Position numbers and translations under genes: made by a program. A DNA stretch of 56,697 nt, from the IMG/VR virus record IMGVR_UViG_3300020171_002227, positions 1 to 56,697 of that record; one strand, written 5' to 3'. Below the pieces are notes generated by a model. The model saw nothing but the letters and a program-made list of their open reading frames with translations, was not told the DNA's origin and did no database searches. This document shows, piece after piece, positions 27,481 through 46,610 of this stretch; position 1 is the first letter of the stretch, and every line of letters starts with the position of its first letter. Origin of the DNA: a virus. Taxonomy: Duplodnaviria > Caudoviricetes.

Positions 27481-28575
27481 TCACCACTCCTCACCATTTA
27501 TAATTTGATTATAAATCTCAAGATGTTTCTTAGCCATAACAATTCTGTCGAATCTATTTAACATATCATCACGACATTTTATTGTATCAATTTTATCTAT
27601 ATTATTTATTGCATTTCTCATTTCGTCAATGTTATTACAAAGTAACCCAGTTTCTTTATCCTTTACAATTTCGCATGGTGCACCATGATTAAAAGTTATA
27701 ACCGGTGTTCCACATGATAATGATTCAATCATTACCAATCCAAAACCCTCCCTATAAAGAACGGGGAACAAAAATGCCTTAGCATTTTGAATAAGTTGTC
27801 GTTTAGTGTATTGATGATTACTATCATTTTGTAATTCAATATATTTAATATTATCATATCCAATTATAGATTTTAAATACGCATCACGTAATGACTTATA
27901 AATATTATCTGGTTCACCGCAAGCAATAATAAGATTAAATTTCATTTCTTTTGCCAAGCTTATAGCGATGTCAATACCCTTATGTTGCAATAAACTACCA
28001 AAATAAATAAAATAATTGCTTTTATCATACTTAGGTAAATAAAAATTCGTATTAGTTCCAAAATGTATAAATCTTACAGATTCATTTTTACCCGTATATC
28101 CAACTTTTTCATACCAAGGTGTTCTTTCAAAACCATTTAATCCATTTGCGGCGGCAAATTGTGAACTTTTTGATGGAACCAATATGTTATGTGCTTTCTG
28201 ATTCCAACTAAATCCAAAATAAGTACATGTTACGTTTTTATACCCCTCATCATATAATGAATTATTAAAAATTTTTGAATGACTAAAATCATGTACAAAA
28301 TCAGATTTCTTTAAATCATCTTTATATTTATTAAACAGTTTATGCTCTAACGTAGGATTACAATCATCACGTAATGGTATTTCTACAAGCTTACCACCTT
28401 TAGGTATTTGTGAACCCACTGGCGCATAAAGTATAACTTCATGACCCAATTCAATATATGCGCACGCTAAATCCCAAATAAAGATTTCCGCGCCCCAGCC
28501 ACACGGTGGACATGTATGTGAAGTATTAGATATTATAGATATTTTCATTTTTTTATTTCCTGAAATAATTGCCAA
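27481..28575 (-). CDS. GT4-family glycosyltransferase
   Basis: PPCGWGAE, HKGID, EGFGLVMIESLSCGTPVI. Confidence 0.92.
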   Translation of the reverse strand: MAIISGNKKMKISIISNTSHTCPPCGWGAEIFIWDLACAYIELGHEVILYAPVGSQIPKGGKLVEIPLRDDCNPTLEHKLFNKYKDDLKKSDFVHDFSHSKIFNNSLYDEGYKNVTCTYFGFSWNQKAHNILVPSKSSQFAAANGLNGFERTPWYEKVGYTGKNESVRFIHFGTNTNFYLPKYDKSNYFIYFGSLLQHKGIDIAISLAKEMKFNLIIACGEPDNIYKSLRDAYLKSIIGYDNIKYIELQNDSNHQYTKRQLIQNAKAFLFPVLYREGFGLVMIESLSCGTPVITFNHGAPCEIVKDKETGLLCNNIDEMRNAINNIDKIDTIKCRDDMLNRFDRIVMAKKHLEIYNQIINGEEW

Positions 28576-29195
28576 CTTTTCTGTGAACTAATTAGAGCAT
28601 CCTCAGACGATATACGAGGAAAATGTGGTATATGAACGACCTCAACATCTCGCATACATATAAATTTTATATGTTTCCACATTCTCCATAAAAATTCTTG
28701 GCACCAATGTGTGGCACAACCTTTAAATTCTTCTCTAAAATTTATAAAATATTTTCTATTAAAACAACAAAATCCTTCAGGTAAATCGTATGATTTAAAA
28801 TAAAATTCTTCAAAGTTTTTGCGCGTTTCAAGACTATTTATCATCATAAGTTTGCCAGCATATAATTTATCGTTACCATATTTTTCTATATATTCACTTA
28901 GTCTCTCTAAATAATCCGGATATACTATTAAATCTAAACTCCATAAATGAATATATTCACCATGAGAAACTTTAAATCCCTCGTTCATCAATTTACCAAT
29001 TCGATCGGTGGGAACCAAAATATTATTTATTTTAATACCATTATATAAAATATAATCAGTATCTATTATTTTGTTGCCGCAAATTATTATTTCAAAATCT
29101 TTAAATGTTTGATTTACTAAAAAATCTATACAATGCTTTAAATTATTATCAGTAAATGTTCCATAAACCGGAATTATAAAGGAAAATTTAACCAT
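28545..29195 (-). CDS. GT2/GT-A-like glycosyltransferase
   Basis: FSFIIPVY…QTFKDFEIII…NEGFKVSHGEYI; DxD degenerate (SLD). Confidence 0.75.
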   Translation of the reverse strand: MVKFSFIIPVYGTFTDNNLKHCIDFLVNQTFKDFEIIICGNKIIDTDYILYNGIKINNILVPTDRIGKLMNEGFKVSHGEYIHLWSLDLIVYPDYLERLSEYIEKYGNDKLYAGKLMMINSLETRKNFEEFYFKSYDLPEGFCCFNRKYFINFREEFKGCATHWCQEFLWRMWKHIKFICMRDVEVVHIPHFPRISSEDALISSQKSWQLFQEIKK

Positions 29196-30693
29196 GTCTT
29201 AACACCTCTATTTTTTGTTCAATCTCATCAATAGTGATGGGTATATTACCTTCATGTTCGCACGCAACAGCTGCACCTAAACTGCCTATAATAGAACTAA
29301 TAACAATATTACCACATACTTTATATGCTAAGGATGATACTGCTAACATTGCATCTCCAGCACCAGTCGCATCAATTAAACAAGATACAAAACTATCAAG
29401 CGCAAAGAAATCTTTAGGTTTATTATTACCATCTCGATATGTTAATGTTCCACGCTCACCCAATTTTAGAATAAGATTTTTGGCACCAGACTTTTTATAT
29501 AATTCTAATCCTAAAGGTCTTACACCGGTATCTTGATCACCTAATGCAAATCTTGCCTCTTTTTCATTGGGTAAAATTAAATCAAAATTTTTAAAATCTA
29601 ATATGTTTCCCCATCGATTATTAACCTGCGTATCTGCAACACGCATAATATTTTTAGGTATTAAAGATGCTAAATAGTTAGACGTAAATTTATTAAATAT
29701 TCCGTGTCTAAAATCACTGAATATAATGATATCTGTAGGAGTTTTCATTATATCTTTTAGCTCATCTAATATCTTATTAGATATCATTCTATTATCCACG
29801 GTATTTACTTGGAGTAATTTATAACCATCAACCCAAAATCTTTCCTTTAATGTTGTGGGTCGACTATCAATAATTGGTTTAAAATTTATATCAACTAAAT
29901 CATTAATAACAAAATTTGCTAAATTATCATTACCTAATACTGTTGTAAATGTTACATCTGCGCCTAAACTTTTTAAGTGTTTAGCGACAATACCGGCACC
30001 ACCTATGAATGTTTTTTCTGATTCTCGTTTTACGCTAAAAGTGGGAGTTTTTGCGGTCTGACCTATTAAAGAACAGTATGAATATTTGTCAACGATAGTA
30101 TCTCCCACTACATGTACTTTAATATTTTTAAATTGATGTAAGATATTACTTAAATCATCAAAATTAATATTTTCAGATTCCATTATAGTAAGTAATTTAT
30201 CTATAGTGAGCTTTGGTTTGTGCATAGCTAATAATTTTGTAGATGAATAAACAACATCCCCCGGACTATAAATACATTTTCCACCATATGATTCTACAGC
30301 ATCAATTTCTTCTTGAGTTTTTGGATTATGACCATCTTTATATTCGAATCCCTTACAAAAAAAATCAGGTTGTATTTTCAATATATTTTCAATAGGTGTT
30401 GGATTTTCATCAATAATAACAAAATCTATCATTTCTAAAGCCGCTAAATTTTCTGCACGTAATTGTTGAGGTATATAAGGACGATCTTCCCCTTTAGATA
30501 TATATTTATCACAAGTTAAACTTGCAATAAGAATATCAGCTTGATTTTTTGCATATTGCAAATATCTCAAATGTCCAACGTGGATCACATCGAAACAACC
30601 ATGTCCAATAATAACCGTTTTATTTCTTGGGAATTTACCAATAATATCACAAATTTCATCAACACTTTTAATTTTATTAAGATAATTTAACAT
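29188..30693 (-). CDS. Bifunctional nucleotidyltransferase / PfkB sugar kinase (HldE-like, reversed domain order)
   Basis: N-terminal GCFDVIHVGH; C-terminal VVGDTIVDKY, PNEKEA, DATGAGDA. Confidence 0.88.
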   Translation of the reverse strand: MLNYLNKIKSVDEICDIIGKFPRNKTVIIGHGCFDVIHVGHLRYLQYAKNQADILIASLTCDKYISKGEDRPYIPQQLRAENLAALEMIDFVIIDENPTPIENILKIQPDFFCKGFEYKDGHNPKTQEEIDAVESYGGKCIYSPGDVVYSSTKLLAMHKPKLTIDKLLTIMESENINFDDLSNILHQFKNIKVHVVGDTIVDKYSYCSLIGQTAKTPTFSVKRESEKTFIGGAGIVAKHLKSLGADVTFTTVLGNDNLANFVINDLVDINFKPIIDSRPTTLKERFWVDGYKLLQVNTVDNRMISNKILDELKDIMKTPTDIIIFSDFRHGIFNKFTSNYLASLIPKNIMRVADTQVNNRWGNILDFKNFDLILPNEKEARFALGDQDTGVRPLGLELYKKSGAKNLILKLGERGTLTYRDGNNKPKDFFALDSFVSCLIDATGAGDAMLAVSSLAYKVCGNIVISSIIGSLGAAVACEHEGNIPITIDEIEQKIEVLRHG

Positions 30694-31388
30694 TTTAGAA
30701 CCTTAGATTTTTTACTATTATGACAATGCATACATAACGGAACTAATCGCCATGGTTTTCCCTTACAACCTTGTTCTTTATCACTATCTACATGATGAAC
30801 TGATAATTTATTAAATTTACCCGTTTTAGTAATATTATCTTTTTCTTCTCTTACACAAATAACACATTTTCTTCCATATTGCTCTCGCACTTCTTCTTTT
30901 CTTTTTTCATTAAACTTAGGACAATATGGTTCAAATGACTTTCCACCCTGCCAATTAGATGATAATTCACCACATAATCCGGTATGAGATTTAGATAATT
31001 TGCTTTTAGTCTCTTCTGTTCTTTTTATACCTAAAATTTTACCCTTATTACTATTTCCTATTTTTTTATTATGATCTTCGGTATTATGTTTTCCATACCT
31101 TGGATTTTTATCGCCATTTTTAGATTCTGACATTTTTTTTATACTTTCTTCAGAATGACGTTTTCCATACCATGGATTTTTATCACCAATTAATGATTGT
31201 GATATTTTTTTTCGCACTTCAGGATTTTTACATGGATTATTATTAATTATTTGATGACCTACAATATATTTAGGAATTCCCATAGATTTATGTTGTCTTT
31301 TAATAATAATTTCTTTACCACATCCACATTGACAAAAATGTTTACCTTGATTTTCTATAATAAACATTTTTATTTTATTCCCGCGCAT
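30687..31388 (-). CDS. Free-standing HNH homing endonuclease
   Basis: CQCGCG, NPWYGKRHSEE (NUMOD3), RKCVIC…SVHHVD…LCMHCH. Confidence 0.85.
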   Translation of the reverse strand: MRGNKIKMFIIENQGKHFCQCGCGKEIIIKRQHKSMGIPKYIVGHQIINNNPCKNPEVRKKISQSLIGDKNPWYGKRHSEESIKKMSESKNGDKNPRYGKHNTEDHNKKIGNSNKGKILGIKRTEETKSKLSKSHTGLCGELSSNWQGGKSFEPYCPKFNEKRKEEVREQYGRKCVICVREEKDNITKTGKFNKLSVHHVDSDKEQGCKGKPWRLVPLCMHCHNSKKSKVLKC

Positions 31389-32051
31389 CTATTTTCTCCA
31401 CGCAATACACGCCAATGATACAAAATTCAAACAACTATAATGTATATTGTAAATATGCCAATCCCATTCATTTTTATCAAAATTACTTTCGATTAATTTA
31501 GTAAAAGTTTCTTCATTAAAGAACCTCTGGTGATGGATGTGATGGAAGTCCACATCATCTAATGCATCACTACATAACCCGGATGGATGTCTAATACTAC
31601 AATCCTTACTTAATTCATGCATATCCTCACCATTAGCAATATGGGTATCTCTTGTTATGAATCTTTGCACATAAGGACTATCTTGTAACCATTTATATTC
31701 ATTTGGCACTGTTATAATAATTCTATCTCGCGTTAATCGTTTTCCTTCTTTTAATACGATATCAACATCATTTATATGTTCAAGTATATCTCCGTAAATA
31801 ACGGTATCGATTGAACGATCTGGTAGTGGTATGTTTTCTGCAAATGCACGAATGAATTTAAATCCTAGTGTATTATTCCATTGATCGCAATCCACGAGAG
31901 TCACCGATTTAATATGCGGCGGATTCGTTATAGACTCTTGTGGTATTGGATATCTCCATTGCGCATGATCCGCACAACCAATATCCAACACATCACCTAT
32001 AGCAAACCTTGTCTGAAACTCAAATCTATGCATCATTAAACTTGGTATCAT
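31389..32051 (-). CDS. Class I SAM-dependent methyltransferase
   Basis: VLDIGC, AENIPLPDRSIDTV, DILEHI, ITVPN. Confidence 0.85.
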   Translation of the reverse strand: MIPSLMMHRFEFQTRFAIGDVLDIGCADHAQWRYPIPQESITNPPHIKSVTLVDCDQWNNTLGFKFIRAFAENIPLPDRSIDTVIYGDILEHINDVDIVLKEGKRLTRDRIIITVPNEYKWLQDSPYVQRFITRDTHIANGEDMHELSKDCSIRHPSGLCSDALDDVDFHHIHHQRFFNEETFTKLIESNFDKNEWDWHIYNIHYSCLNFVSLACIAWRK

Positions 32052-32315
32052 TTCTTTTCATCCATTCTAAACATTGTTGGGTTCTTGCATTCATGTGGTA
32101 AATCCGCTCTTACCATCGTGCAACACCATACGCACCATATATACGGATGATCATTTTCGTATCTAATTCCTACCATATTTATATCCTCACCAATCTTTTT
32201 TTAATAATTTACTTATGTTTTCTCTGCTCGATTTATATTTTAATATAAGTATTCTTGTTTTTTAGTTGCGAGTTCAACTTTATTATTTCTTTTTTACATA
32301 TCGAATAAATATATA

Positions 32316-33113
32316 TTATGGATTCACCCCATATTTTTTACATAATAAATTATATTTATTAGTGCTTACAATTGCGACATCTTCAGGATCAAAAAATTTT
32401 ACAAAGGGTGGAATTGGATAACTCATTATTCGTTGTATTGCGGCTCTACCATCAGATACAAATTTAAGATTATTTTCGTATATTAATCTAACATAAAATT
32501 CAATATTAGCCGGACCAGTTCTTCCATTATAAGATTCATCCCAACCACCAATTTTTCTCGCGTATATTGTTGGAAATGATTCATTACGACTATAACAAGT
32601 TCGATGATCTACTAAAGTTCCATTAGGCGCGTCTAATTTTGGATCCATTCTAAATTGTGGTAATACAGTAAACATTTTAGTATTAAATTCTTCATAAAAT
32701 GTAGAAAACGGATCTTCTAAATTTGATTTTAATTTTGGTAAACCATAAATAATTTGTGGTGCGGACAAACAATACCCCGCTTCATTATATTGATAATGTA
32801 TGTCAATCCAATATGGATTCATATAAGTGTAATCACTAAGTATAATTGTATATTGTCCCGTAGCTTTTTCTAAACATTGATTTAAGGAACTATTGTGTGA
32901 GTGATAATCGGATTGATTTTGTGGTTCAAAATGAATTACATTGATTTTATTTTCTTGCGCCCAATTCTTCACTATTGTCGCACGTCTATTATACAATTTA
33001 TCTGACCATACTATCTCAAATTCGGATTTTAAAAATGTTTGCTTTTTAAAACTTTCAAAAAGCATATCACATCCACCATACCGGTGCGTACACAATAAAA
33101 TACTAATTTTCAT
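32316..33113 (-). CDS. GT2/GT-A-like glycosyltransferase
   Basis: ISILLCT…QTF…FEIVWSD…IGGWDESY; tandem paralog of 33110-33907. Confidence 0.75.
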   Translation of the reverse strand: MKISILLCTHRYGGCDMLFESFKKQTFLKSEFEIVWSDKLYNRRATIVKNWAQENKINVIHFEPQNQSDYHSHNSSLNQCLEKATGQYTIILSDYTYMNPYWIDIHYQYNEAGYCLSAPQIIYGLPKLKSNLEDPFSTFYEEFNTKMFTVLPQFRMDPKLDAPNGTLVDHRTCYSRNESFPTIYARKIGGWDESYNGRTGPANIEFYVRLIYENNLKFVSDGRAAIQRIMSYPIPPFVKFFDPEDVAIVSTNKYNLLCKKYGVNP

Positions 33114-33907
33114 GGATTAACTCCATATTTCTTACATAGTATATTATATCTTCTTGTATTTATAGTCATGTCCATTTCTTCTGATAAAAATTCTGTAAAT
33201 GGTGGTATTGAATAAGACATTATCCTATATATTTCCGCTCGACCATCACAAGCAATTTTACAATTAGCTTCATATTGTAATCTTAATCCAAATTCCAAAT
33301 TAGATTGCCCGGCTCTATTGTTATAATTTTCATCCCAACCACCAATTTCTCTACCTAATTTAGTGGGAAATGATTCATTTCTATTATACCAATAATGGAA
33401 ATCAATCAAAGCGCCATTTTGTAATTGTAACTTCGGATCCATATTAAATATAGGCAGCAATTTAAACATATCGATATTAAAATCTTCATAAAATATCGAG
33501 ATGGGATGTTCTAAACTACTGCATAGTTTTGGTAAACCATAAATTCTTTGCGGTGCAGATAAGCAATATCCCGATTGATGGTATGCATAATGAATTTCCA
33601 TCCAATGCGGTAACATGTAGGTATAGTCTCCGATACATATTATACACTCACCAGATGCTTTATTTAAACATTCATTTAATACACTACTATGAACATGGTA
33701 ATTAGACTGCGTCTTAGGTTCGAAATGTATGATGTTAATACCGTTATCTTTTGCCCAAACATAGACTAAATCTTTACGCTCTTTATATAATTTATCGCAC
33801 CACACTAATTCATATTCATTTTTATCAAATGTCTGATGTTCTAAACCAGCAAAAAGCATATCTACGCCACCCCAACGGTGCGTAGTTAATATAATCGACA
33901 CCTTCAT
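33110..33907 (-). CDS. GT2/GT-A-like glycosyltransferase
   Basis: VSIILTT…QTF…YELVWCD…IGGWDENY. Confidence 0.75.
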   Translation of the reverse strand: MKVSIILTTHRWGGVDMLFAGLEHQTFDKNEYELVWCDKLYKERKDLVYVWAKDNGINIIHFEPKTQSNYHVHSSVLNECLNKASGECIICIGDYTYMLPHWMEIHYAYHQSGYCLSAPQRIYGLPKLCSSLEHPISIFYEDFNIDMFKLLPIFNMDPKLQLQNGALIDFHYWYNRNESFPTKLGREIGGWDENYNNRAGQSNLEFGLRLQYEANCKIACDGRAEIYRIMSYSIPPFTEFLSEEMDMTINTRRYNILCKKYGVNP

Positions 33908-34674
33908 ATTTTATCTCCAAAATAATTTAATAAATTTCTTTCTCTTAATTTTTCCATAAAATGCTCTTCCCAATAATTACGATTAAAATTAGCTTTACCA
34001 TGACAACTACTACATAAAGTAATTAAATCCGGATAACAATCTTCCTTTTTATAATGAATATGATGAACCGATAATTTTCTACCATTTTCTAATTCTGTTT
34101 TATTACATTTTTGACAAATTCTATCATCACGAATTCGTATTTCTTCCCTTAATTCCTCTGTCCATCTTTCACAATATTTTATTTCGGTAATTCCACCCTT
34201 CCAATTAGGATTATTTTCACGGCTACTGGCTTCTGATAATTTCTTTCTAGTTTCATAGGAGGGATATTTTCCTTTATTAACTTCTGATAATTTTTTCTTA
34301 TGTTCTTCAGATTTAGGTTTATCTTTATGAAATTCAGATATTTTTTGCCTCACCTCTAATCTTTTAGCGGGATTATTATCACCTGATAATCTTCCTAAAT
34401 TTTTTTTACTTATTTTTTGTTTTGCTTCTTCAGTTTGTTTTTTACCTTTTCGATGTGATGGTTTACCTTTTTTACTATCAGATATTTTCTTTTTATGTTC
34501 TTCTGATTTAGGTTTATCTTTATGTGTTTCAGACATTATTTTACTAATATCATCATCTATTATAGGAAAATTAGGAAAGGACGCAACATACATATTAAAA
34601 TTAATATTATGTTTTCTTAAATGAAGATTATTTATATATTTAAAATTTTTATGACAAATTTGGCATTCAACCAT
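33904..34674 (-). CDS. Free-standing HNH homing endonuclease with N-terminal C2H2-like finger and NUMOD3 repeats
   Basis: CQICH…HLRKH; KPKSEEHKKK repeats; RDDRICQKC…SVHHIHY…LCSSCH. Confidence 0.87.
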   Translation of the reverse strand: MVECQICHKNFKYINNLHLRKHNINFNMYVASFPNFPIIDDDISKIMSETHKDKPKSEEHKKKISDSKKGKPSHRKGKKQTEEAKQKISKKNLGRLSGDNNPAKRLEVRQKISEFHKDKPKSEEHKKKLSEVNKGKYPSYETRKKLSEASSRENNPNWKGGITEIKYCERWTEELREEIRIRDDRICQKCNKTELENGRKLSVHHIHYKKEDCYPDLITLCSSCHGKANFNRNYWEEHFMEKLRERNLLNYFGDKI

Positions 34675-34682
34675 AAAACTAC

Positions 34683-35936
34683 TTACTCCTTTTTCATTAA
34701 TTTTTCTGTGGGTTTATATTTCTTTTCTAATTTTTCTCTCCAAGCAATAGCTTCATCAAACGTTAACTTGGATGTTGATATCCGACAAACTGTATGTGAA
34801 TATTCTCCGGGAATTCCCTTATAGTGCGATCGACATTTTTTATTAAATTTTAAATCATATTTTTCTGAATTTTCGTAAATATCCGAACCCGGAAAGATTG
34901 AAAGTATAGTAAAGTCAACATCGTGAGGAGCGGTTCGTTCAACAAATTCATCCATTTTTTGTAAACTATCCGGACTTTCATGTGGCAAACAAATTATAAA
35001 TAATTCCTTTAAATTAATGCCCGCAGATTTAATCATATTACAAACTTTTTCAGCATTTTCAATATCAATATTTTTATTGATGATATTTAATATTTCAGGA
35101 TCAGCACTCTCAATTCCAACGGCAATTTCTATACATCCTGCTTCAGACATAATAGATATAATTTTTTTATTAAGACTTTCCACTCGCGATAAACACCTCC
35201 ACTTTATATCCAATGGTGTAACTAATTCACAAAATTCTTTAAGTCGTCGCTTATTGCTTACGAACTCATCATCAAAAAAAACGAATGAATTAATATTATA
35301 CTTTTCTTTAATTTCCACGATTTCTTTTATCATATTTTCCGCTGAACGATATCTAACTTTACTTCCGGGTAATTGATATTTACAACAGAACGCACATTTT
35401 CCCCAAGAACATCCTTTAGATGTAATCATAGTAGTGCTTGGTATTCCACGTAATTTATAATTTTCAGCATACATTTTTATATCAAGTATGCTGCGATCAG
35501 GAAATGGTATTTCATCTAAATTCTCAATCTTTATTTCCGTATAAATCTTTTTAATATTCGGATAATCTTTTAATATCTGTAAGCTTGCAATCTCACCCTC
35601 ACCAATAACGATTGCATCAGCCCACATACAATCTTGCGCCATGAGGGTAGGATGTGGACCGCCTACCACGAACTTGGCGGATATGTTATTCTTCTTTAAC
35701 AGTATCATTGCTTCCTTAGCGTATTCCAAATTGGGCGTTGCTACGTAAATAAAGAATATATCCCCCTTTATATCTGAATAATCTTTATCACTTTCCATAT
35801 CAATTAGTTGTATATTATTATAACCATGTTCCTTGAAGAAAGAACTCAAAGTTAAAAGTCCAAGGGGAGGAAATACAAACTTCGAAATTAAATATGGACT
35901 TATTGGGTTCACAAGTATTATACGTAAATCATTCAT
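34683..35936 (-). CDS. B12-binding radical SAM protein
   Basis: PPLGLLTL, VVGGPHPT, IGEGE, TSKGCSWGKCAFC, FFDDEF, GIES. Confidence 0.92.
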   Translation of the reverse strand: MNDLRIILVNPISPYLISKFVFPPLGLLTLSSFFKEHGYNNIQLIDMESDKDYSDIKGDIFFIYVATPNLEYAKEAMILLKKNNISAKFVVGGPHPTLMAQDCMWADAIVIGEGEIASLQILKDYPNIKKIYTEIKIENLDEIPFPDRSILDIKMYAENYKLRGIPSTTMITSKGCSWGKCAFCCKYQLPGSKVRYRSAENMIKEIVEIKEKYNINSFVFFDDEFVSNKRRLKEFCELVTPLDIKWRCLSRVESLNKKIISIMSEAGCIEIAVGIESADPEILNIINKNIDIENAEKVCNMIKSAGINLKELFIICLPHESPDSLQKMDEFVERTAPHDVDFTILSIFPGSDIYENSEKYDLKFNKKCRSHYKGIPGEYSHTVCRISTSKLTFDEAIAWREKLEKKYKPTEKLMKKE

Positions 35937-35960
35937 TTAAATCAGCCTTTATATGCTATC

Positions 35961-35980
35961 ATAGTATATATAGTTATCGC
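35961..35980 (-). promoter_or_regulatory. BRE-TATA promoter (GCGATAAC-TATATATA) for the glycosylation operon
   Basis: Archaeal promoter consensus ~30 nt upstream of ATG 35936; similar element at ~37741-37756. Confidence 0.55.
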
Positions 35981-36079
35981 ATTAATTAATATCTACCTTT
36001 AATATTCATTATATATAATTTTTTGAGGCATAGCTTTAAATACTATTAAAACATATATAGGATTGAGCGTGATAAAATC

Positions 36080-36319
36080 ATGACCAAAATGACAAAAATA
36101 CCACCAGCCGAGTACAGTAAAGATAAGGGAATACGAGGACTTATACAGATTGCAACCCAATCTCGCGATAAGAATGCGCTTCCAGAAAGAATTGAAATAG
36201 TGACTCGATATTTCGCTAAGTTCAAAACAAGAATGGTAAAACAGAACGCGCCAATATCTGACGCTGAAGAAAAAGAAATTATGTCAATACTCAATGAAAT
36301 CATCCACAGGAGTGAATAA
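36080..36319 (+). CDS. Small hypothetical protein (early cassette)
   Basis: 79 aa; TTTAAATACTATTAA and GTGAT upstream. Confidence 0.55.
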   Translation: MTKMTKIPPAEYSKDKGIRGLIQIATQSRDKNALPERIEIVTRYFAKFKTRMVKQNAPISDAEEKEIMSILNEIIHRSE

Positions 36320-36479
36320 ACATGTCAGGAAATCCATACTTCGGAAAAACCACTAAATCTTTTAAAGAAGCTTGTGAATCGATGCATACTGAAGATCATA
36401 CAAAACGTATGAATGAGTTGCACCACACTGACTATGTGACGCCAAGAAATCATAAACCAAGAAAAATAAAAATCAGTAA

Positions 36480-36716
36480 GTGGTCAAAATGAAACCTGAA
36501 GAATTAAAAACCTTTTTTATGTCTAAAGGGCTTAAACCTAAACTGACATCGTTTACTACCCTTATTGGCGATGTAAAATATAAACTGGGTAAGAATAGTC
36601 TAAAGAAATTCATAAGATATGACGGCGGATGGACAAAAGTCTGGTCGGCATATTATAAAGATATCTCAATCAATCCTGAAACTGGAAAACTACATATCGA
36701 AAAATATATAAGGTGA
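36480..36716 (+). CDS. Small basic hypothetical protein
   Basis: 78-aa ORF in the + strand cassette. Confidence 0.5.
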   Translation: MVKMKPEELKTFFMSKGLKPKLTSFTTLIGDVKYKLGKNSLKKFIRYDGGWTKVWSAYYKDISINPETGKLHIEKYIR

Positions 36717-36839
36717 AATCACGTGTGAAGAAATCGAAAATTTGGAAATCGAGGTATTGGTTCAGCGTGAAAAAATTAGAATTCTAACCATGCGTCTGGA
36801 CGATCTTACAATGAAATTTAAACGGCATGTGACGAATCC

Positions 36840-37040
36840 ATGACAGGTTATAATTTACCGCCGGGTGTAAATGAGTGTGACATACCCGGCAATAGACATA
36901 TAGATGTTTTATGGGAAAAAGAAGCTGAAAAGTTTTGCGAAAATTGCGAAGATGTTGGCGGTTGCGATAAAGATATCGGCTTATGTCAACACGCCCGCAA
37001 ATTCGAAAAACATTTCGAATCAATATTAAATCTTTATTAA
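36840..37040 (+). CDS. Small Cys-rich hypothetical protein
   Basis: GYNLPPGVNECDIPGN…CENC. Confidence 0.55.
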   Translation: MTGYNLPPGVNECDIPGNRHIDVLWEKEAEKFCENCEDVGGCDKDIGLCQHARKFEKHFESILNLY

Positions 37041-37045
37041 TTTTT

Positions 37046-37693
37046 TTAAATATTACTTATTTGCATTGCGCCATTTTCGGTAAATGCATTTGATATCCCG
37101 TGACGACATTGAATCGAGGTATCCGCCCAAATTTTATATCCTCTTTCTCGGGCCTTCTTGCAAAATTCGAAGTCTTCCGAACGTCCTACACCAACATTTT
37201 CAGGATCTTCGAAACTTAACGTCCATTCGAAGTATGGCTTTTTTAAGTTCTTGAATACTGAAGTATGTATTAAACAACACCCCATTCCAATAAAGTCCGC
37301 TTCCACCATTTGACCTGGAGTATAACTTATTGCACGTTTTCCAGATGGTTGAACTTCATGCCATATTGCTGGTTCTATCGGTTGCGCACGGGTAAAATAT
37401 ACTCCTGTGCAAATTGGTAAATTATGTGCCATCAATCGCGCGATGGTGTCCGGTGGGCATATTACATCCGTGTCTAGAAAAAACACAAATTCCGCCTTAG
37501 CATCTAATGCAGCACGGACGATCTCGTTACGGCTCATGTCTATGGGGACTCCGCGCGATACTGTAAAACTGGCAGGAACATTTACTTGAAGATTACGAAA
37601 ACCTAAACACCAATCCATGGAAACAGTATCCTTATGGGGCATTCCGATCATTACTTTTACATTCTCTGAACCCAATTCCCAAGCTCCTGGCAT
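37046..37693 (-). CDS. GT-A fold glycosyltransferase
   Basis: SRNEIV, FFLDTD (DxD), GMGCCLI, SEDFEFC, CRH. Confidence 0.85.
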   Translation of the reverse strand: MPGAWELGSENVKVMIGMPHKDTVSMDWCLGFRNLQVNVPASFTVSRGVPIDMSRNEIVRAALDAKAEFVFFLDTDVICPPDTIARLMAHNLPICTGVYFTRAQPIEPAIWHEVQPSGKRAISYTPGQMVEADFIGMGCCLIHTSVFKNLKKPYFEWTLSFEDPENVGVGRSEDFEFCKKARERGYKIWADTSIQCRHGISNAFTENGAMQISNI

Positions 37694-39202: not shown

Positions 39203-40180
39203 TTATTTCAAGTCCCTGATCTTTCCCTGAGTGTTGAATCTTGTACAGATTAACTCACCCATAGTTCTAAACAGACCTTCATCACCAAGATAATTGATGC
39301 CAAATGGATCTTTCTTAGACATACCGGACTCGAAGTACATAGTCGGTAATGCGACTTTGAACGCGAGATAGTCAGTATCTAAGATATAGATTCTGCTTAT
39401 TGTGTCCTGCACAACATCTTTAGATGGTATGATAGGAATGCCCTGGTATGTTGCAACGTTAAAGCCTGCTTCAGCACCGGGGATACCTTTTACGCCACCA
39501 TATGTCGGAACTACAAGTTCTCTACCCATAAATCTCTGTTGGGCTTGAAGTGCTTGCTGTATTCTTTCAATGGTATCATAACCAGTCACGATGATCTTAG
39601 GATTAGCACCCTTAACTCTTAACTCTGTAAGGGCGGTATCGAGCATATCAATGGTGAAAGTTCTATCCACATCCGAATTATGATTCACATATGCGTCTGC
39701 CCATGAATTGGCTGTATCTGATCGGTCAATGCTATATATATCTGAATCGCCAGCACCTACAACGGCATCTTCAGCAAGACTTGAACATACACGATCAATG
39801 GATTCAACGTTGTTTCCTGCAACGGTTGTAACGTCACCTAAAAGCATTTTATTGATCATTTCAGCATGATGTTTGCCCATTTCCTCTCTCATGACCTTCA
39901 TGACATCTCCAAGACCGTCGTCTTTTGTGCCTAAGAACGTTTCCATTTCAGAAGCGTTAAAGCTATGAGCGATGATCTTTGGTTTTGTTGAAAGTTCCTT
40001 AAAAGTAGGTTTGATTGTGTCTGGTAAAGTTGCGTTTTCTCCAACACCGCCGCCACTTAAGGCTGCCCTATTGGTGATAACTCTCCATCCACTTTTCTCC
40101 CAAACTATTTTTGGTAACAGTGCAAATATATTTTGCTCTTGGTTTAATTGCGACCAAATTTTTGCACCAAATATCGGGTT
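39203..40180 (-). CDS. Major capsid protein (HK97 fold), exon 2 (325 codons + stop)
   Basis: Frame is open 78 codons upstream of the track's Met (NPIFGAKIWSQLNQEQNIFALLPK…GWRVIT…ENATLP…KPKIIAH); C-terminal YQGIPIIPS…QGKIRDLK. Confidence 0.9.
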   Translation of the reverse strand, partial: NPIFGAKIWSQLNQEQNIFALLPKIVWEKSGWRVITNRAALSGGGVGENATLPDTIKPTFKELSTKPKIIAHSFNASEMETFLGTKDDGLGDVMKVMREEMGKHHAEMINKMLLGDVTTVAGNNVESIDRVCSSLAEDAVVGAGDSDIYSIDRSDTANSWADAYVNHNSDVDRTFTIDMLDTALTELRVKGANPKIIVTGYDTIERIQQALQAQQRFMGRELVVPTYGGVKGIPGAEAGFNVATYQGIPIIPSKDVVQDTISRIYILDTDYLAFKVALPTMYFESGMSKKDPFGINYLGDEGLFRTMGELICTRFNTQGKIRDLK

Positions 40181-40926
40181 CTGTTCTCTAAAAAATAATA
40201 TGATTTATTGAATCTACACATTTACAAACATTTTCATTTATTTCATGTTCCCAAAATCTATAAACAATAAAACCTTTTTCTTTAAGAAGTTTATCACGAA
40301 TTTTATCTTTTTCTATTATATTTGGAAGATTATGCCAATAATCACCATCGCACTCAACGATAATATTATCATTAATTAAAAAATCAACTCTAAATTTTTC
40401 TAACATAGAAACTTGTTCCGTATAATCAATATTACGATTTTTTAACTCTTGTGCAATTTTTTTTTCTATTGATGATGATTTTCCACCTTGATTTTTTCGT
40501 GATGTTAATACAGCCTTACGAGCCCGATTAGACCTTTCTTCTGCATTAAATCTTTCTTTATAGGTTTCTTTTTGTTTTTCGATAATTTCAGGATTATTAA
40601 TATATGTTTGTGTAAGTGTATTTGAAATTTGCTTTATAATTTCAGGATTATCAATATATGTTTGTTTAAGCGTTTCACCTTGTTTAGTTCCCTTATTTTG
40701 AAACTGTTCTGAATTTTTACGAGCAACTAATTGACTATTTCGATATGTTTCATCTTGCCAATTTTCTGTTTTTCTTTTGCTCATTTTTTCTTTATATTCA
40801 GGATGATCTTTAAACAATTTTTTTAACCTTTTTGAAGCAACTTCAAATGATTCATTTCGACCCATAATTATACCTTAAACTTATAAATAAGTATCCCAAT
40901 ATAATTAATCATACTACTTTTTAAAA
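40181..40926 (-). mobile_element. Archaeal bulge-helix-bulge intron (746 nt) in the MCP gene
   Basis: CGGGU/ACCCG exon helix, AGA bulge, GUUU/GAAC 4-bp helix, AUU bulge, 19-bp intron stem; canonical cuts rejoin the frame. Confidence 0.9.
40188..40865 (-). CDS. Intron-encoded Vsr/DUF559-like (PD-(D/E)xK) endonuclease
   Basis: SSIEKKI…VDFL…VECDGDYWH…DKIRD…GFIVYRFWE; basic N-terminal repeats (QTYIDNPEII / QTYINNPEII). Confidence 0.88.
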   Translation of the reverse strand: MGRNESFEVASKRLKKLFKDHPEYKEKMSKRKTENWQDETYRNSQLVARKNSEQFQNKGTKQGETLKQTYIDNPEIIKQISNTLTQTYINNPEIIEKQKETYKERFNAEERSNRARKAVLTSRKNQGGKSSSIEKKIAQELKNRNIDYTEQVSMLEKFRVDFLINDNIIVECDGDYWHNLPNIIEKDKIRDKLLKEKGFIVYRFWEHEINENVCKCVDSINHIIF

Positions 40927-41040
40927 ATAAACACCCGTAGTGGTACTGAGCACTGGACTATCCGCTTTCTGCAATTCAAGGCCACGGCCGTAATAATACT
41001 CTTCCATGTCCTTTACTGTTTTAACATAGTTTCTTACCAT
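40927..41040 (-). CDS. Major capsid protein, exon 1 (38 codons; not in ORF track)
   Basis: AAGGAG RBS; MVRNYVKTVKDMEEYYYGRGLELQKADSPVLSTTTGVY, then TTT TAA if unspliced. Confidence 0.88.
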
Positions 41041-41060
41041 TTCTTTATTTCTCCTTTATT

Positions 41061-41693
41061 TTAATAATGCGCACTATTTGATTTCTGAGAATCAAGCATA
41101 TTTAATTCTTCCCATGACATTTTGCTTATGTCTTTAAATGTTACGCTCGCGCCCTTCTCAATTGGATGTCCGCTATCCACTTTAGGTTTTGCGGTCATTT
41201 GTGAAGGAGTCAATCCCATACCCTTCAATATTTCTTCAACTTGTGATTTAGTGACATTTATGTTTATATCGCTCTTTGAAGGTGAAGATGTTGATGGGGT
41301 TGCGATTGGTGCCGGTGCGGCTGCTGATTGCTGTATCTGATCAGTTGGTGCAGGAGGCATCGGTGGTGCTGCTGGTGCGCCTATCTTGCTAAGAATCTCT
41401 TGTAGTAATGCAAGAATTTGGGACATCGCATCGCCTTGACTAGGAGCGGTCATTTCTTCTGAGCCGTCACCGTTAGGTGCTGGTGCTTCAGGAGGAAAAT
41501 CTGCTTTCTTAGTTTCAGTTCCTTTATCCTCTATTTTTTTACTCGTTCCGCCTAATTTGTCCTCAAGATGCGCTGCATCGGGTGTTGACTCGTTTGGGTC
41601 AAAATCCTTTTCTTCAGCTTTCTTAAGGTATGTGTTTATTTCTGCGGCCGTCTTTCTTAAGTCAGCAACAGAATATTGTTTTAAATCTACCAT
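41061..41693 (-). CDS. Putative capsid scaffolding protein
   Basis: Acidic, P/A-rich low-complexity protein directly upstream of the MCP; C-terminal ISKMSWEEL helix. Confidence 0.65.
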   Translation of the reverse strand: MVDLKQYSVADLRKTAAEINTYLKKAEEKDFDPNESTPDAAHLEDKLGGTSKKIEDKGTETKKADFPPEAPAPNGDGSEEMTAPSQGDAMSQILALLQEILSKIGAPAAPPMPPAPTDQIQQSAAAPAPIATPSTSSPSKSDININVTKSQVEEILKGMGLTPSQMTAKPKVDSGHPIEKGASVTFKDISKMSWEELNMLDSQKSNSAHY

Positions 41694-43240: not shown

Positions 43241-43465
43241 TTATTTAAAATCCACAATATTCAAAACCTTATGTCCAAAATGCTTTAATTCGGTAATTTT
43301 ACTTTCAAGTTCTTCCTTAGTTGCGCCGATAAAATCAATTTTTCCATCTTTCGATTGATAGTTAATTTTATAGGCTTTCTGAATGGCATCTTTAATTATA
43401 TCCATATCGTCTTGTTGTTTTCCGTATGCCACGGAAAGTTGCATATCTAAATCCTTAATGTTCAT
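43241..43465 (-). CDS. Small hypothetical protein
   Basis: ATG 43465 overlaps the zeta-like gene stop (ATGA). Confidence 0.5.
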   Translation of the reverse strand: MNIKDLDMQLSVAYGKQQDDMDIIKDAIQKAYKINYQSKDGKIDFIGATKEELESKITELKHFGHKVLNIVDFK

Positions 43466-44394
43466 AAAATCCTCTTTGATGGTGAATAGGATGAATCCCA
43501 AAGTTCATATTCATCAACTAAATCTTTATATTTCTTTTGCGCTTCATTTATATTATTGCCTTCTTTTGCAATCCAATGCAACGGGATATATCTACCCGTT
43601 GTCATAAATCTCCTTGTTGCGCGAATTATTAATAATTCCACATTTGCCTGCACGGATACAACTTTAATTTTATAGCCAAGTTCTTTTAATCTTGCTATTT
43701 TCTTAGTTTCTTTTTCAACATCTCTCATCGTACCATCAATAATAATATTTCGCCTTTCAGCTAAACTACGTTCAATAAGCCTATCATGAATATCACGAGC
43801 TTCATCATGATACAGCATAGCATTTACACCAGTATATCCCGGTAATCGTTCTTGAATATCATCTGAATTCACATATGTAAAATCGGAACCCTTCACACCC
43901 TTATGTTTTAAAATTGTAGATTTTCCTGATGCTGGTGGACCACCGACTAATAAAGCCGCCGGCGTTTCACCATTTTTAGGTAACGAATTATCACCAATAA
44001 ACTCTTCCATAATTCTTTCATGTAATATTAATCTTTCTGGCGTATATCCACCAGTATTACTATACATGTTTTTTGATGTTCTGCCGTTATTAACGCCATC
44101 TAAAACCTTATATAATTTTGATACATTTGGCATGGAATGTATAGACTCCCACGCATGATCTAAGGTATAAGATATATTTGTTTGTGGTTGCGATTCGGCG
44201 ACTTCCCGTGACTCATAGTATATACCGCCATGTTTACCACGCTGCAATGATACACCTTTAGGCGCATCATTAGCATCTTCAACATAAACTCGTGTTTTTT
44301 TAATTTCAGATTTTTGAACACCGTTAAAAAATTTACTCATGAAGTCATTAATTACTTGTATGTCGTTTTCCTTATAACCTAATTTTGTTTGCAT
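43462..44394 (-). CDS. Zeta-toxin-like P-loop kinase with N-terminal repeated tag
   Basis: GGPPASGKST, VNSDDI, NIIIDGT, RFMTTGRYIP; tag KKTRVYVEDANDAPKG…GKHGGIYYE. Confidence 0.85.
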   Translation of the reverse strand: MQTKLGYKENDIQVINDFMSKFFNGVQKSEIKKTRVYVEDANDAPKGVSLQRGKHGGIYYESREVAESQPQTNISYTLDHAWESIHSMPNVSKLYKVLDGVNNGRTSKNMYSNTGGYTPERLILHERIMEEFIGDNSLPKNGETPAALLVGGPPASGKSTILKHKGVKGSDFTYVNSDDIQERLPGYTGVNAMLYHDEARDIHDRLIERSLAERRNIIIDGTMRDVEKETKKIARLKELGYKIKVVSVQANVELLIIRATRRFMTTGRYIPLHWIAKEGNNINEAQKKYKDLVDEYELWDSSYSPSKRIL

Positions 44395-45266
44395 CAGAAT
44401 ACCCCCATTTCCCGTAATATATTTAATCTTCCCTCTTTATATTTATATCTATCAGATGTTATGGTATCAGTAGGATATAAATATCTATTTGGTATCTTCG
44501 CTTGACTTCCCCCAACAATTTGCCTATAATCTTCTGCTAATATTTCATCCAAACTTTCGTACATTGCATTTAAACTTACACCATAATGCATTTGTACATA
44601 TTGCGCATACTTTTTAAATTTCTCATACTCAATTTTTTGAAATTCTAATTGTGTTTTTATATCTTTAAAGTTTATAAATTTATGTACTTTGGTATGTCCG
44701 ACTTCATGAATAATTGTAACGGCTCGTTTATCCTCAGTTATAAAGGATAGTTCTTCAGGTGTATAATTTGCTTCCTTTAAAATATCTTTTAACTCATCCA
44801 CCCATTCAGCATACTCGTGTTCAGATGTCGCAGGTAAATAAATATTTGTGGGATCATTAGATGATACAAAAGCAAATGCATTCGATATATTTAAGGGTAA
44901 TAAATTAAGTGTGACTCCACCCAAATCAATATTATGTTTCTTAATTAATCCATTTATATACTCTATTGATGTTGGTGCCGTGGAAGTATATTCATCATCA
45001 CCCATCATTAACATCACGTTTAAAAACTTTTGTGAATCTACAAATATGGTTTCAACACGGTTTTTTACTTGTTGTGCGGCAGGTTTAGACCTTTCCATGT
45101 CATCACTTATATAATACTGGCCGCCACGTTTACCTTCTTGTAGTTTAGCGCCCGGCGGTGCTTCAGCGGGATTTTTTACATAAACTTTAGCTTTTTTAAT
45201 TCGTGTATTGAATGATTTAATCCAATCGGCACTTTCACCACCAATATCTAAAATTATTGTTTTCAT
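44394..45266 (-). CDS. Zincin-like metallopeptidase with N-terminal repeated tag
   Basis: IIHEVGH…EILAEDY; tag KKAKVYVKNPAEAPPG…GKRGGQYY. Confidence 0.7.
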   Translation of the reverse strand: MKTIILDIGGESADWIKSFNTRIKKAKVYVKNPAEAPPGAKLQEGKRGGQYYISDDMERSKPAAQQVKNRVETIFVDSQKFLNVMLMMGDDEYTSTAPTSIEYINGLIKKHNIDLGGVTLNLLPLNISNAFAFVSSNDPTNIYLPATSEHEYAEWVDELKDILKEANYTPEELSFITEDKRAVTIIHEVGHTKVHKFINFKDIKTQLEFQKIEYEKFKKYAQYVQMHYGVSLNAMYESLDEILAEDYRQIVGGSQAKIPNRYLYPTDTITSDRYKYKEGRLNILREMGVF

Positions 45267-46519
45267 GGTAAATCTCCAACATCTTGGTCATGAAATCTAA
45301 GTTCAACGTTTCGACAATACACTTCCCTATCTTCACCAATCGTTAATATTTCTCGTTCATTTCCCATATATGCATGTGACATAAATGTTGACCAAATTTT
45401 ATCTTTTGGTATTTTTGTACTTAATATAAAACCATGTAATTGTTGGCTACCTGCAAACTTTTCCGCAACTTCGGGTTTTAATGTCCATGAACTTAATGAA
45501 TTAGATTTAACCAAAACCTTATTTTCATCTGACTCTACATCATATCCATTTATTAAATTAAATTCCTGTCGTGTTGTTCCCCTATAGATAGTAATTTCAT
45601 TGGTGTTAGGAAACATTACATCTAAAAATGATCTTGTTAATTGTTTTTGTATTTTAACATAATTATCAACTAATTCTTGCGGATATTTTCCGTGTAATTC
45701 TTGAAGTTTAACATCTATATCCTTTACCGCATCATGATATCTAATTTCGCCACCAAATTGTCTTTTAATTGAATCTTTTAATAATAATGCTAAATCAGAT
45801 GAACTTGATTGTTCCCAATCCTCTTTTGATTCTTCATGAAATTCAACATATTTACCATCATACAACATATTATAAAATTCATTTGTTGCTTCAATTACTA
45901 TTGTACTTTTCATATCATTTTTCATTATGTCATTAACATAATTTTTAAATTGTTCATTTAAATCAATTTTTCCAGTTTTATTAAAATTATCTATAATTGG
46001 CGTTAAAAATCTAACAACAGGAAGTCTTTTTGTTACAATATTTGTAAAATCTACAAATTGCGTAGCATTTAAACGACTATACTTTCCAGTATCTATTATA
46101 TTCTTAATAAATTCTAATCCACTTAAATCAATTCTATATGCAATTTTTGTATTAACGCCAACATCAACATCATTATTATATAACATTATATGTAACCCAT
46201 TTTGATCAATTCTTTCAGCAACTTTTTGACGCACTATTGGCTCTTTATCATTAATCAATTTATGTAAATGTTCCATATCACATTTATGGGCCGCTAACCA
46301 CCGAATATTAGTATCAGTATCACTAGTAAAAAAATTTATAATTTTTATATCATTTGTATGTTGTAAAACAAATTTACGCTCATCATATGCTCTATTTTTT
46401 AATTCATCACCACTACCATCATCTATTTTTTGTCTATATACAGATTCAAATGATATCGGTTGTTTATATTTACTTGGATATATTGATGATGATAGAGGTT
46501 GAATTGTCTTACCCCTCAT
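45263..46519 (-). CDS. Putative ADP-ribosyltransferase (R-S-E type) with N-terminal HEAT/LRV-like repeats
   Basis: IYRG…LSSWT…VAEKFA…NEREIL; DTNIRWLAA / DKEPIVRQKVA repeats; first ATG at 46519. Confidence 0.65.
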   Translation of the reverse strand: MRGKTIQPLSSSIYPSKYKQPISFESVYRQKIDDGSGDELKNRAYDERKFVLQHTNDIKIINFFTSDTDTNIRWLAAHKCDMEHLHKLINDKEPIVRQKVAERIDQNGLHIMLYNNDVDVGVNTKIAYRIDLSGLEFIKNIIDTGKYSRLNATQFVDFTNIVTKRLPVVRFLTPIIDNFNKTGKIDLNEQFKNYVNDIMKNDMKSTIVIEATNEFYNMLYDGKYVEFHEESKEDWEQSSSSDLALLLKDSIKRQFGGEIRYHDAVKDIDVKLQELHGKYPQELVDNYVKIQKQLTRSFLDVMFPNTNEITIYRGTTRQEFNLINGYDVESDENKVLVKSNSLSSWTLKPEVAEKFAGSQQLHGFILSTKIPKDKIWSTFMSHAYMGNEREILTIGEDREVYCRNVELRFHDQDVGDLP

Positions 46520-46610
46520 AATAATGACCACCTTGCGGACATTCTTCAATCTTTACACCTTTTGGCGCATCAGAAGGATTTTTCACATAGACTTTAGCTT
46601 TGTGTATCAT
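46509..46610 (-). CDS. 33-aa tag-only ORF, out of frame with the downstream ART-like ORF (not in ORF track)
   Basis: MIHKAKVYVKNPSDAPKGVKIEECPQGGHYYEG*; ATGA overlap with the upstream gene. Confidence 0.75.
   Translation of the reverse strand: MIHKAKVYVKNPSDAPKGVKIEECPQGGHYYEG

Follow-up and report, generated by a model that had tools for sequence, protein, structure and literature searches.

In this study we analyzed a 56.7-kb stretch of DNA, hereafter called the window, that represents a single virus record (IMGVR_UViG_3300020171_002227) with the IMG/VR class provirus and a CheckV completeness of about 61%. Its gene for the major capsid protein (MCP) is split by an intervening element, which we interpret, with a probability of roughly 0.7, as a tRNA-type intron bounded by a bulge-helix-bulge (BHB) structure in the single major capsid gene of a tailed virus of archaea. 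The element contains an open reading frame (ORF) of its own, and the coding parts of the locus are arranged as follows:

40927..41040, minus strand: MCP exon 1, 38 codons, MVRNYVKTVKDMEEYYYGRGLELQKADSPVLSTTTGVY
40188..40865, minus strand: intron ORF, 225 aa, predicted Vsr/DUF559-type homing endonuclease (Pfam, PDB, PHROG 559)
39203..40180, minus strand: MCP exon 2 (P0001), HK97-type major head protein, 325 codons plus stop (Pfam SU10_MCP, PHROG 24667)

The first-pass annotation, which was made from the letters of the window, had placed the break of the MCP frame after codon 38 (40927) and its resumption at 40180, followed by 78 codons without ATG, and all three features were present as described. 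Besides ATG, exon 2 also lacks in-frame GTG and TTG codons over its first 78 codons. P0001 matched the profiles Pfam SU10_MCP (6.1e-8) and PHROG 24667, major head protein (6.3e-65), and exon 2 shares 39% identity with MCPs of Haloarcula tailed viruses. The joined MCP comprises 363 aa. The intervening element (40926..40181) has a length of 746 nt, of which the ORF at 40865..40188 leaves 61 and 7 nt non-coding, and it is AT-rich, with a GC content of 0.253 compared to 0.412 in the exons and 0.322 in the window. Beyond 40927 the exon 1 frame continues for one further codon and then meets TAA; as the internal ORF in addition has its own ATG, an intein was rejected. Translational bypass was rejected from the sequence as well, since a matching landing codon is lacking and known hops fall far short of 746 nt.

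The position of the exon joint was defined with the help of uninterrupted relatives. With the full-length MCP of the viral contig L003 as query, 89 MCP loci (the window, L001–L006, and L087–L168) were screened by tblastn. The gene is uninterrupted through its N-terminus in 76 of them, namely 75 loci with a single high-scoring segment pair plus L002, whose second pair about 1.9 kb upstream is spurious; ten loci are cut by a contig end and three are interrupted. Five uninterrupted relatives on viral contigs, L002, L003, L004, L005, and L006, have MCPs of 362–385 aa that are 80, 79, 48, 50, and 47% identical, respectively, and read ...T(T/Q)GVYN(P/A)(I/V)(F/Y)GA... without a gap over the predicted joint. 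They thus possess an N-terminus like that encoded by exon 1, as the first-pass annotation had predicted, and they match the in-frame 363-aa MCP with the joint GVY^NP (caret at the cut) that it had derived from the bulge cutting rule. When both cuts in the window were moved by -1 nt, a stop resulted, and a shift by +1 nt gave Tyr where all five homologs have Asn. Homologs calling for a different junction, which had been named as the observation that would speak against the prediction, were not encountered among these five, and shifts by one nucleotide in either direction failed in the window and in the interrupted locus L087 described below.

To the two junctions we applied the geometry of the tRNA 37/38 intron, consisting of a helix, a 4-nt central helix, a 3-nt bulge, and a further helix, with cuts after the second bulge nucleotide. 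In archaeal tRNA the BHB motif has a 4-bp helix between two 3-nt bulges, with the first two anticodon bases lying within the helix (PMC4090602; this paper and the others cited here by PMC number were available in part). The window junctions read CGGGU-GUUU-[AU^U]-19-bp stem and stem-GAAC-[AG^A]-ACCCG, with bulges in square brackets. The helix on the exon side is termed H1 and the intron stem H2, and the elements of the motif are, from the outer helix inward:

40941..40946, minus strand: outer exon helix, 5′ strand GUACCA, pairs with 40164-40169 in the minimum-energy co-fold
40164..40169, minus strand: outer exon helix, 3′ strand UGGUGC, from the minimum-energy co-fold
40933..40937, minus strand: H1 exon helix, 5′ strand CGGGU, 5/5 paired with 40175-40179
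40175..40179, minus strand: H1 exon helix, 3′ strand ACCCG, pairing checked by script
40929..40932, minus strand: central 4-bp helix, exon strand GUUU, 4/4 paired with 40183-40186, one G-U
40183..40186, minus strand: central 4-bp helix, intron strand GAAC (the exon-pairing segment), pairing checked by script
40926..40928, minus strand: 5′ bulge AUU, predicted cut 40927/40926, the cut position required by the homologs
40180..40182, minus strand: 3′ bulge AGA, predicted cut 40181/40180, from the BHB scan, the joint-shift test and script-checked pairing
40907..40925, minus strand: H2 intron stem, 5′ arm, pairs with 40187-40205 over 19 contiguous positions, three of them G-U
40187..40205, minus strand: H2 intron stem, 3′ arm, pairs with 40907-40925

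Every BHB pair was verified by script in the window and in the two further interrupted alleles, L087 and L001. The motif is flanked by helices on both sides (hBHBh′), with H1 contributing 5 bp plus a 6-bp outer extension and H2 19 bp. Accordingly, the anatomy that had been proposed for the window, i.e., a 5-bp exon helix, a 4-bp helix, two 3-nt bulges, and a 19-bp stem including G-U pairs, was confirmed pair by pair, and its outer GUACCA/UGGUGC extension forms in the minimum-energy fold. The MCP site was the best-scoring BHB on either strand of the window, with 28 paired positions compared to 22 for the runner-up, and the best BHB in each of four block shuffles reached 21, 21, 22, and 25 paired positions. 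The co-fold energy of the junctions was -36.2 kcal/mol compared to -13.4 ± 2.4 in 300 shuffles.

The two other interrupted loci carry diverged copies of the element. In the metagenome contig L087, whose MCP is 85% identical to that of the window, a 753-nt element interrupts the gene at the same codon, and 592 of 743 nt are identical between the two elements. The exon-pairing segment of L087 is GGAC instead of GAAC; one pair of the central helix is thereby changed from U-A to U.G, and all four pairs with GUUU are retained, two of them G-U. In H2, one pair is changed on both sides, from U-A to C-G, and thus represents a compensatory change, and one U.G is replaced by C-G.

The second locus, on the viral contig L001, encodes an MCP with 94% identity, which is interrupted 24 nt downstream of the window site, after ...GAKV. 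The element (2266-3000) has a length of 735 nt; its nuclease is 43% identical to that of the window, and the introns share 408 of 702 nt. Its 5′ end reads GGCGCC-AAAG-[UA^U]-UUUAA(U)AUAGUGAUAU and its 3′ end AUAUCACUAU-UUAGA-CUUG-[AG^U]-GGAGCC. The co-fold energy of these junctions was -24.5 compared to -13.7 ± 2.7 in shuffles. The exon-pairing segment CUUG lies opposite exon AAAG in L001, whereas GAAC lies opposite GUUU in the window; the segment thus varies along with the exon sequence from one site to the other. The five intron-proximal base pairs are kept (UUUAA/UUAGA in the window and L001, UCUAA/UUAGA in L087), as is the first U of the intron. These data suggest that the element has switched between two positions within the best conserved N-terminal motif of the MCP. 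After the fifth pair of the intron stem, L087 (at 385) and L001 (at 2272) share a single bulged U, the corresponding nucleotide of the window being a paired A, and this shared nucleotide may be a conserved feature of the stem.

In all three interrupted alleles the stem lies inward of the 5′ joint by 1 nt and of the 3′ joint by 6 nt, with the restriction that the L001 joint, although compatible with the cutting rule, is ambiguous by ±1 nt, so that only the sum of 7 was tested there. Offsets of 1 and 6 nt are what the BHB geometry demands and therefore support it. Since the joint is fixed by protein homology and the stem by complementarity, these are two independent determinations, and they agree.

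Among the 38 codons of exon 1, synonymous and nonsynonymous differences numbered 15 and 3 between the window and L087, 12 and 1 between the window and L001, and 18 and 2 between L087 and L001; codon rows with L003 were excluded, being offset by one codon. Selection on exon 1 is purifying in every interrupted allele, which indicates that it is still expressed as protein; from an unspliced transcript it would give a 39-residue orphan. Purifying selection is also compatible with a separately made peptide, and the element might stay in the RNA, giving a 39-aa N-terminal peptide and an exon 2 product made by re-initiation or from a non-canonical start, or the genomes might be defective. Endonuclease insertions that split phage genes into separate halves are known, for example in the DNA polymerase of group B magroviruses (PMC5434244); the endonuclease gene ends just 7 nt ahead of exon 2, and L087 and L001 have an in-frame ATG 11–19 codons into exon 2. 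However, these ATGs are at different, non-conserved positions, and exon 2 of the window has no start codon for 78 codons. A two-piece protein leaves unexplained the stem offsets of 1 and 6 nt in three alleles as well as the 4-nt complementarity at the second site. Dead genomes are not likely, given that the three alleles have diverged, differ by many synonymous changes, and keep their exons intact, and the element was found in DNA contigs of three runs from three studies. We therefore consider it quite unlikely that the MCP is made in two pieces or that the genomes are defective.

The ORF within the element encodes a nuclease, whose domain lies at residues ~130–222 of the 225 aa and contains the motif VECDGDYWH. 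Over residues 130–222 the protein matched MTES_1575 (5.5e-13, 49.2 bits, cut-off 38.2) and DUF559 (1.8e-11, 44.3 bits, cut-off 20.6); it also matched PHROG 559, and the closest PDB entry was 3r3p_A, 'Mobile intron protein' (E 0.0016). All three copies of the element retain the motif (V/I)ECDGDYWH. No Pfam domain of the LAGLIDADG type usual in archaeal introns was matched by the intron ORF at E ≤ 0.01. The ORF begins with its own ATG 61 nt into the element, 8 nt downstream of a Shine-Dalgarno-like AAGGU, and its last codons and stop, which precedes exon 2 by 7 nt, are overlapped by the 3′ arm of H2. The protein is predicted to be an active homing enzyme that presumably cuts uninterrupted MCP alleles of co-infecting relatives and thereby spreads the intron.

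A nuclease of this kind would also fit a self-splicing intron of group I (or another ribozyme) whose core lies mostly inside the ORF, the BHB-like fold then being a by-product of a P1/P10-like pairing together with a peripheral stem. Introns of group I that encode homing endonucleases are frequent in phage genes, the closest relative with a solved structure, deposited as a mobile intron protein, comes from a phage group I intron, and in the window the 5′ exon ends with U and the intron with G, as group I splicing requires. This U/G rule is kept in only one of the three alleles, since the L087 intron ends with A and all three protein-compatible joints of L001 fail. With Rfam 15, no intron family was detected at the gathering threshold in the whole window or at E ≤ 10 in window positions 40000-41150 and L001 positions 2050-3150. 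The codon differences between the ORFs of the window and L087, 38 synonymous and 58 nonsynonymous, extend across all nine full 25-codon blocks, and no run of identical codons is longer than 10. Consequently, there is no conserved block of ~200 nt to hide a catalytic core, and the part of the element outside the ORF amounts to just 68 nt. In favor of a ribozyme, DPANN archaea, the likely host lineage, do contain group I introns that carry homing endonucleases (PMC6125680). The 39 archaeal group I introns of that study, many of them from Woesearchaeota, Pacearchaeota, and Micrarchaeota, are however without exception listed in rRNA genes, and each of the 21 that have a Pfam match encodes a LAGLIDADG enzyme (PMC6125680). 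Taken together, we regard a group I or other ribozyme intron as improbable. The first-pass annotation had reached a similar view from the ~70 non-coding nucleotides of the element, which it held to be too few for a ribozyme; the Rfam, splice-site, and block tests disfavor a ribozyme as well, but the length argument alone is insufficient, because ORFs can overlap ribozyme cores. A group II intron was rejected, as Rfam gave no match and the ORF encodes a nuclease rather than a reverse transcriptase.

The sequence of the window was present in 13 public runs, mostly groundwater and drinking-water metagenomes, among which X10 was the single metatranscriptome. Four runs were mapped, the RNA run X10 and the DNA runs X1, X2, and X6. 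X10 holds 11% of the sampled words and gave four contigs, all of them off both junctions, and is thus uninformative about splicing; one of these contigs (40608-40794, one difference, depth 3) lies within the nuclease ORF. The element is carried by DNA contigs of X1, X2, and X6, i.e., of three runs from three studies, and record 4 of X1 spans 40019-41011, including both junctions, with 0 differences. In the DNA run X6, near window position 40952, the loose end of two contigs continues ...TTTGVYNP without the element; this sequence differs from the window and looks like another strain. Such co-occurrence of interrupted and uninterrupted forms would be the setting in which a homing nuclease acts.

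An uninterrupted variant in a DNA run that also holds the element would also be expected if the 19-bp ends were terminal inverted repeats of an element excised from DNA. The ends are inverted repeats in DNA too, and the compensatory change fits conservation of a repeat equally well. Alternatively, the stem might be cut by another double-strand-specific RNase. Yet the nuclease gene is the sole gene of the element, and no transposase or recombinase was detected in it by Pfam, PDB, and PHROG comparisons. A precise deletion was present in no DNA contig of the three DNA runs, X1 record 4 has both junctions intact, and the uninterrupted sequence of X6 appears to stem from a different strain. Furthermore, a DNA element would not be expected to show exon-intron and exon-exon pairings beyond its repeats. 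Excision from DNA or cleavage of the stem by another RNase is therefore, in our opinion, very unlikely.

Additional copies of the element were sought by several approaches. A 16-mer from the 5′ non-coding part of the intron matched nine loci and a 19-mer pattern of the 3′ junction one locus, and none of these ten was MCP- or nuclease-like; they were dismissed as chance matches, one of which, L178, lies inside an unrelated ORF. For the nuclease, 117 relatives were found, of which 80 were retained. A scorer for contiguous BHB motifs gave totals of 10–20 around the genes of the nuclease relatives, which is the chance level, and it also missed the relaxed motif of L001. In a gapless search for flanking stems at 72 nuclease loci, the window ranked first with 46 and the others reached at most 37. 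The runner-up, L048, was rejected, as it is a free-standing gene between two intact genes. Fusion of long frames by relaxed BHB candidates was discarded as a criterion, because it was positive at 58 of 73 loci and hence non-discriminating.

The MCP matched 9 of 50,697 phage records, eight Haloarcula viruses and one Methanofastidiosa virus, all of them archaeal tailed viruses, and the portal protein matched 10, all of which are Haloarcula viruses. Judged from these proteins, the virus is a member of an archaeal-virus lineage, which makes a host with the splicing endonuclease EndA plausible. Among 185,579 species genomes (one per prokaryote species), two MCP relatives were found, both in archaeal metagenome-assembled genomes (MAGs), one of them labeled Candidatus Pacearchaeota. 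The two MAGs are small (about 1.2 and 0.5 Mb), and each encodes an EndA whose score exceeds the Pfam cut-off. A DPANN-like groundwater archaeon with a small genome is the probable host. EndA and the ligase RtcB had no match in the viral record, which is ~61% complete. We infer that these two enzymes carry out the splicing and are supplied by the host, and capsid production probably needs the host tRNA-splicing machinery. A host rather than a viral origin of the enzymes, which the dependence proposed in the first-pass annotation presupposes, is uncertain, because the record is just ~61% complete. Its further proposals, that the intron times late expression or limits the host range, are speculation.

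A protein encoded at window positions 1112-1756 (plus strand) has an XPF/Hef-like architecture, in which an ERCC4 nuclease domain is joined to a C-terminal helix-hairpin-helix. This architecture is mainly archaeal and eukaryotic and fits an archaeal host. The other window genes include those for ThyX, NrdD, an SNF2 helicase, and many sugar-modifying enzymes, which together with the ERCC4 nuclease leave the host undecided.

Several observations weigh against a BHB intron and enter into the probability given above. The minimal BHB pattern of 13 pairs (4+4+5) occurred 1553 times in the window compared to 1249–1320 times in four block shuffles; this pattern is not significant, being about as frequent as expected by chance, and the BHB at the MCP exceeds chance only after helix extension. 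The minimum-energy fold has a 5 × 5 internal loop where the 4-bp central helix is expected, and an explicit BHB model has -26.2 compared to -36.2 for the minimum-energy fold, which includes outer pairs that are absent from the model. A register shifted by 1 nt (40926-40929/40179-40182, UGUU/AACA, all Watson-Crick) also scores 28; as read from the sequence, it would place UAA at the joint after ligation, so that the enzyme would have to prefer the productive register. In L087, H2 loses one pair (G.U to U × U) and consists of 17 bp with one bulge and one mismatch, and the first H1 pair, adjoining the 3′ bulge, is broken (C × A) by the synonymous change GGU to GGC, leaving 4 bp in H1. The L001 motif is relaxed, with 7 of 8 pairs in H1, 3 of 4 in the central helix, and 15 pairs plus one bulged U in H2. 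The strict motif of the window should suit any EndA, whereas the relaxed motifs of L087 and L001 may need a broad-specificity enzyme. The comparison comprises just three alleles and two independent sites, and at the 70 nuclease-gene loci besides the window and L087 no flanking stem above chance was found. The joint 40927>40180 was present in none of the runs X1, X2, X6, and X10, the contigs of X10 covering neither junction. Finally, the host assignment is indirect, and the binning of viral contigs into MAGs is weak evidence for it.

For a BHB intron we propose the following mechanism. The MCP gene would be transcribed together with the 746-nt element, and the 19-bp intron stem would bring the junctions together in the pre-mRNA. 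The intron segment GAAC would then pair with GUUU, the last exon nucleotides before the 5′ bulge, and the exons with each other (CGGGU/ACCCG), which would generate the strict hBHBh′ motif. Host EndA would cut after the second nucleotide of each bulge, and RtcB would join the exons to an in-frame MCP mRNA of 363 codons and probably circularize the intron. The nuclease would be translated from its own start and would presumably cut uninterrupted alleles, driving homing. The enzymology of this scheme is carried over from the splicing of archaeal tRNA, rRNA, and cbf5 transcripts (PMC4090602, PMC2738675), and EndA-dependent pre-mRNA splicing has been established for cbf5 (PMC2738675).

Mobile introns with homing endonucleases are known from archaeal rRNA genes, those of the I-DmoI and I-PorI type occurring in Crenarchaeota. 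Like these, the MCP element is long, bounded by a BHB, equipped with a homing endonuclease ORF, presumably spliced by EndA and RtcB, and located in a highly conserved part of an essential gene. Unlike them, it resides in a viral protein-coding gene and not in a cellular rRNA gene, its nuclease is of the Vsr/DUF559 type and not LAGLIDADG, and its carrier is a tailed virus with euryarchaeal and DPANN-associated kin and not a crenarchaeon. That homing endonuclease genes occur in archaeal BHB introns has been described (PMC6125680). The crenarchaeal cbf5 intron likewise has a BHB-like motif in a protein-coding transcript and yields an in-frame mRNA, with EndA cleavage known for cbf5 and proposed here (PMC2738675). 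However, according to the available part of that paper, cbf5 introns are 33–39 nt long, ORF-less, cellular, and vertically inherited with gains and losses (PMC2738675), whereas the MCP element has 746 nt and a nuclease gene, is viral, and occupies two sites. With the tRNA 37/38 intron it shares an identical geometry, the 5′ bulge consisting of two exon and one intron nucleotides and the 3′ bulge of two intron and one exon nucleotides (PMC4090602), and the spliced exons form a hairpin with a 7-nt loop that resembles an anticodon arm. In contrast to the tRNA intron, it is part of an mRNA without a tRNA body and is ~30–60 times longer than the medians of 12–25 nt (PMC4090602).

Among viral introns, the group I introns in structural and replication genes of phages, e.g., of PhiPA3 (PMC11620839), also combine a mobile intron and an endonuclease in an essential viral gene. 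The nuclease domain of the MCP element is akin to the intron-encoded enzyme 3r3p_A, and both kinds of element may serve competition between co-infecting viruses. Unlike the phage introns, the MCP element has no detectable ribozyme and does not keep the group I splice-site rule, and its splicing would need host proteins instead of proceeding autocatalytically. For an archaeal rudivirus, putative 12-bp introns in protein genes have been proposed (Peng et al., as cited in PMC2738675). This case resembles ours in that archaeal-type introns were suggested for viral protein genes, but as described in the available part of that source it concerns 12-bp in-frame insertions, which are ORF-less and for which splicing was not shown and no BHB analysis was given (PMC2738675). 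For the related magroviruses, the part of PMC5434244 that was available describes a split DNA polymerase and free-standing LAGLIDADG genes and mentions no capsid intron. In the full-text literature, with subscription-only articles and supplements outside its scope, our search turned up no viral capsid gene and no tailed archaeal virus for which a BHB intron is described, in agreement with the first-pass annotation, which knew of no precedent in a viral capsid gene. The novelty thus lies in an endonuclease-bearing BHB intron in a new setting, viral and protein-coding, with a new nuclease family.

In the literature covered here, archaeal BHB introns are described for tRNA and rRNA, for mRNAs essentially only in cbf5, and for viruses no further than the untested 12-bp proposal. 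If the interpretation holds, EndA and RtcB would be usable as a general mRNA-splicing system, mobile BHB introns would extend beyond the rRNA genes of Crenarchaeota and beyond LAGLIDADG enzymes, and a virus could tie an essential late gene to tRNA-processing enzymes of its host. The strict hBHBh′ motif in an mRNA offers a testable substrate for the choice of EndA between equally paired registers, and introns of this kind flag capsid genes of metagenomic archaeal viruses that are mis-annotated as "truncated". We tentatively consider a wider picture, which we regard as somewhat less likely than not. It assumes a family of mobile, protein-spliced introns in archaeal viruses that would shift from site to site in an essential capsid gene and be retargeted by changes of the 4-nt exon-pairing segment (GAAC/CUUG), in a manner similar to the internal guide sequence of group I introns. 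The nuclease, of the Vsr type, would be directed against uninterrupted alleles in co-infecting relatives, and the intron would be at once a selfish element, a weapon between viruses, and an EndA/RtcB lock on capsid synthesis. In that case the virus would be the first known from prokaryotes to require tRNA-splicing enzymes for a structural mRNA.

Apart from the intron ORF, the record contains six ORFs resembling homing endonucleases of the NUMOD3 and/or HNH type and one NUMOD3-only ORF, which lie between genes and often abut the stops or starts of their neighbors; including the ORF in the MCP intron, there are thus eight nuclease genes in 56.7 kb. The intergenic ORFs are:

2883-3494, plus strand: intergenic nuclease-like ORF
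14142-14759, minus strand: intergenic nuclease-like ORF, HNH match weak
16783-17409, minus strand: intergenic nuclease-like ORF
22417-23175, minus strand: intergenic nuclease-like ORF
30687-31388, minus strand: intergenic nuclease-like ORF
33904-34674, minus strand: intergenic nuclease-like ORF
53816-54532, minus strand: intergenic nuclease-like ORF

In the window scan, no BHB that scores beyond chance flanks any of these seven ORFs, and a weak pair at 34671/33954 lies within one ORF.

Two further regions of the window deserve mention. A block of ~16 kb on the minus strand (21380-37693) encodes four glycosyltransferases, two B12-binding radical SAM enzymes, three methyltransferases, a GDP-mannose-dehydratase-like epimerase, and a cytidylyltransferase-sugar kinase fusion; endonuclease genes are scattered among them. 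This glycan-modification module is unusually large for a virus and may be host-derived; in this context we note the provirus call of IMG/VR. The head module includes, on the minus strand, the genes for a protein with a Zeta-toxin/AAA_33-like kinase domain (43462-44394, 8.2e-24) and a protein with a DRAT-like ADP-ribosyltransferase domain (45263-46549, 7.3e-9). Both adjoin a 1237-aa protein that has only a faint similarity to prohead proteases.

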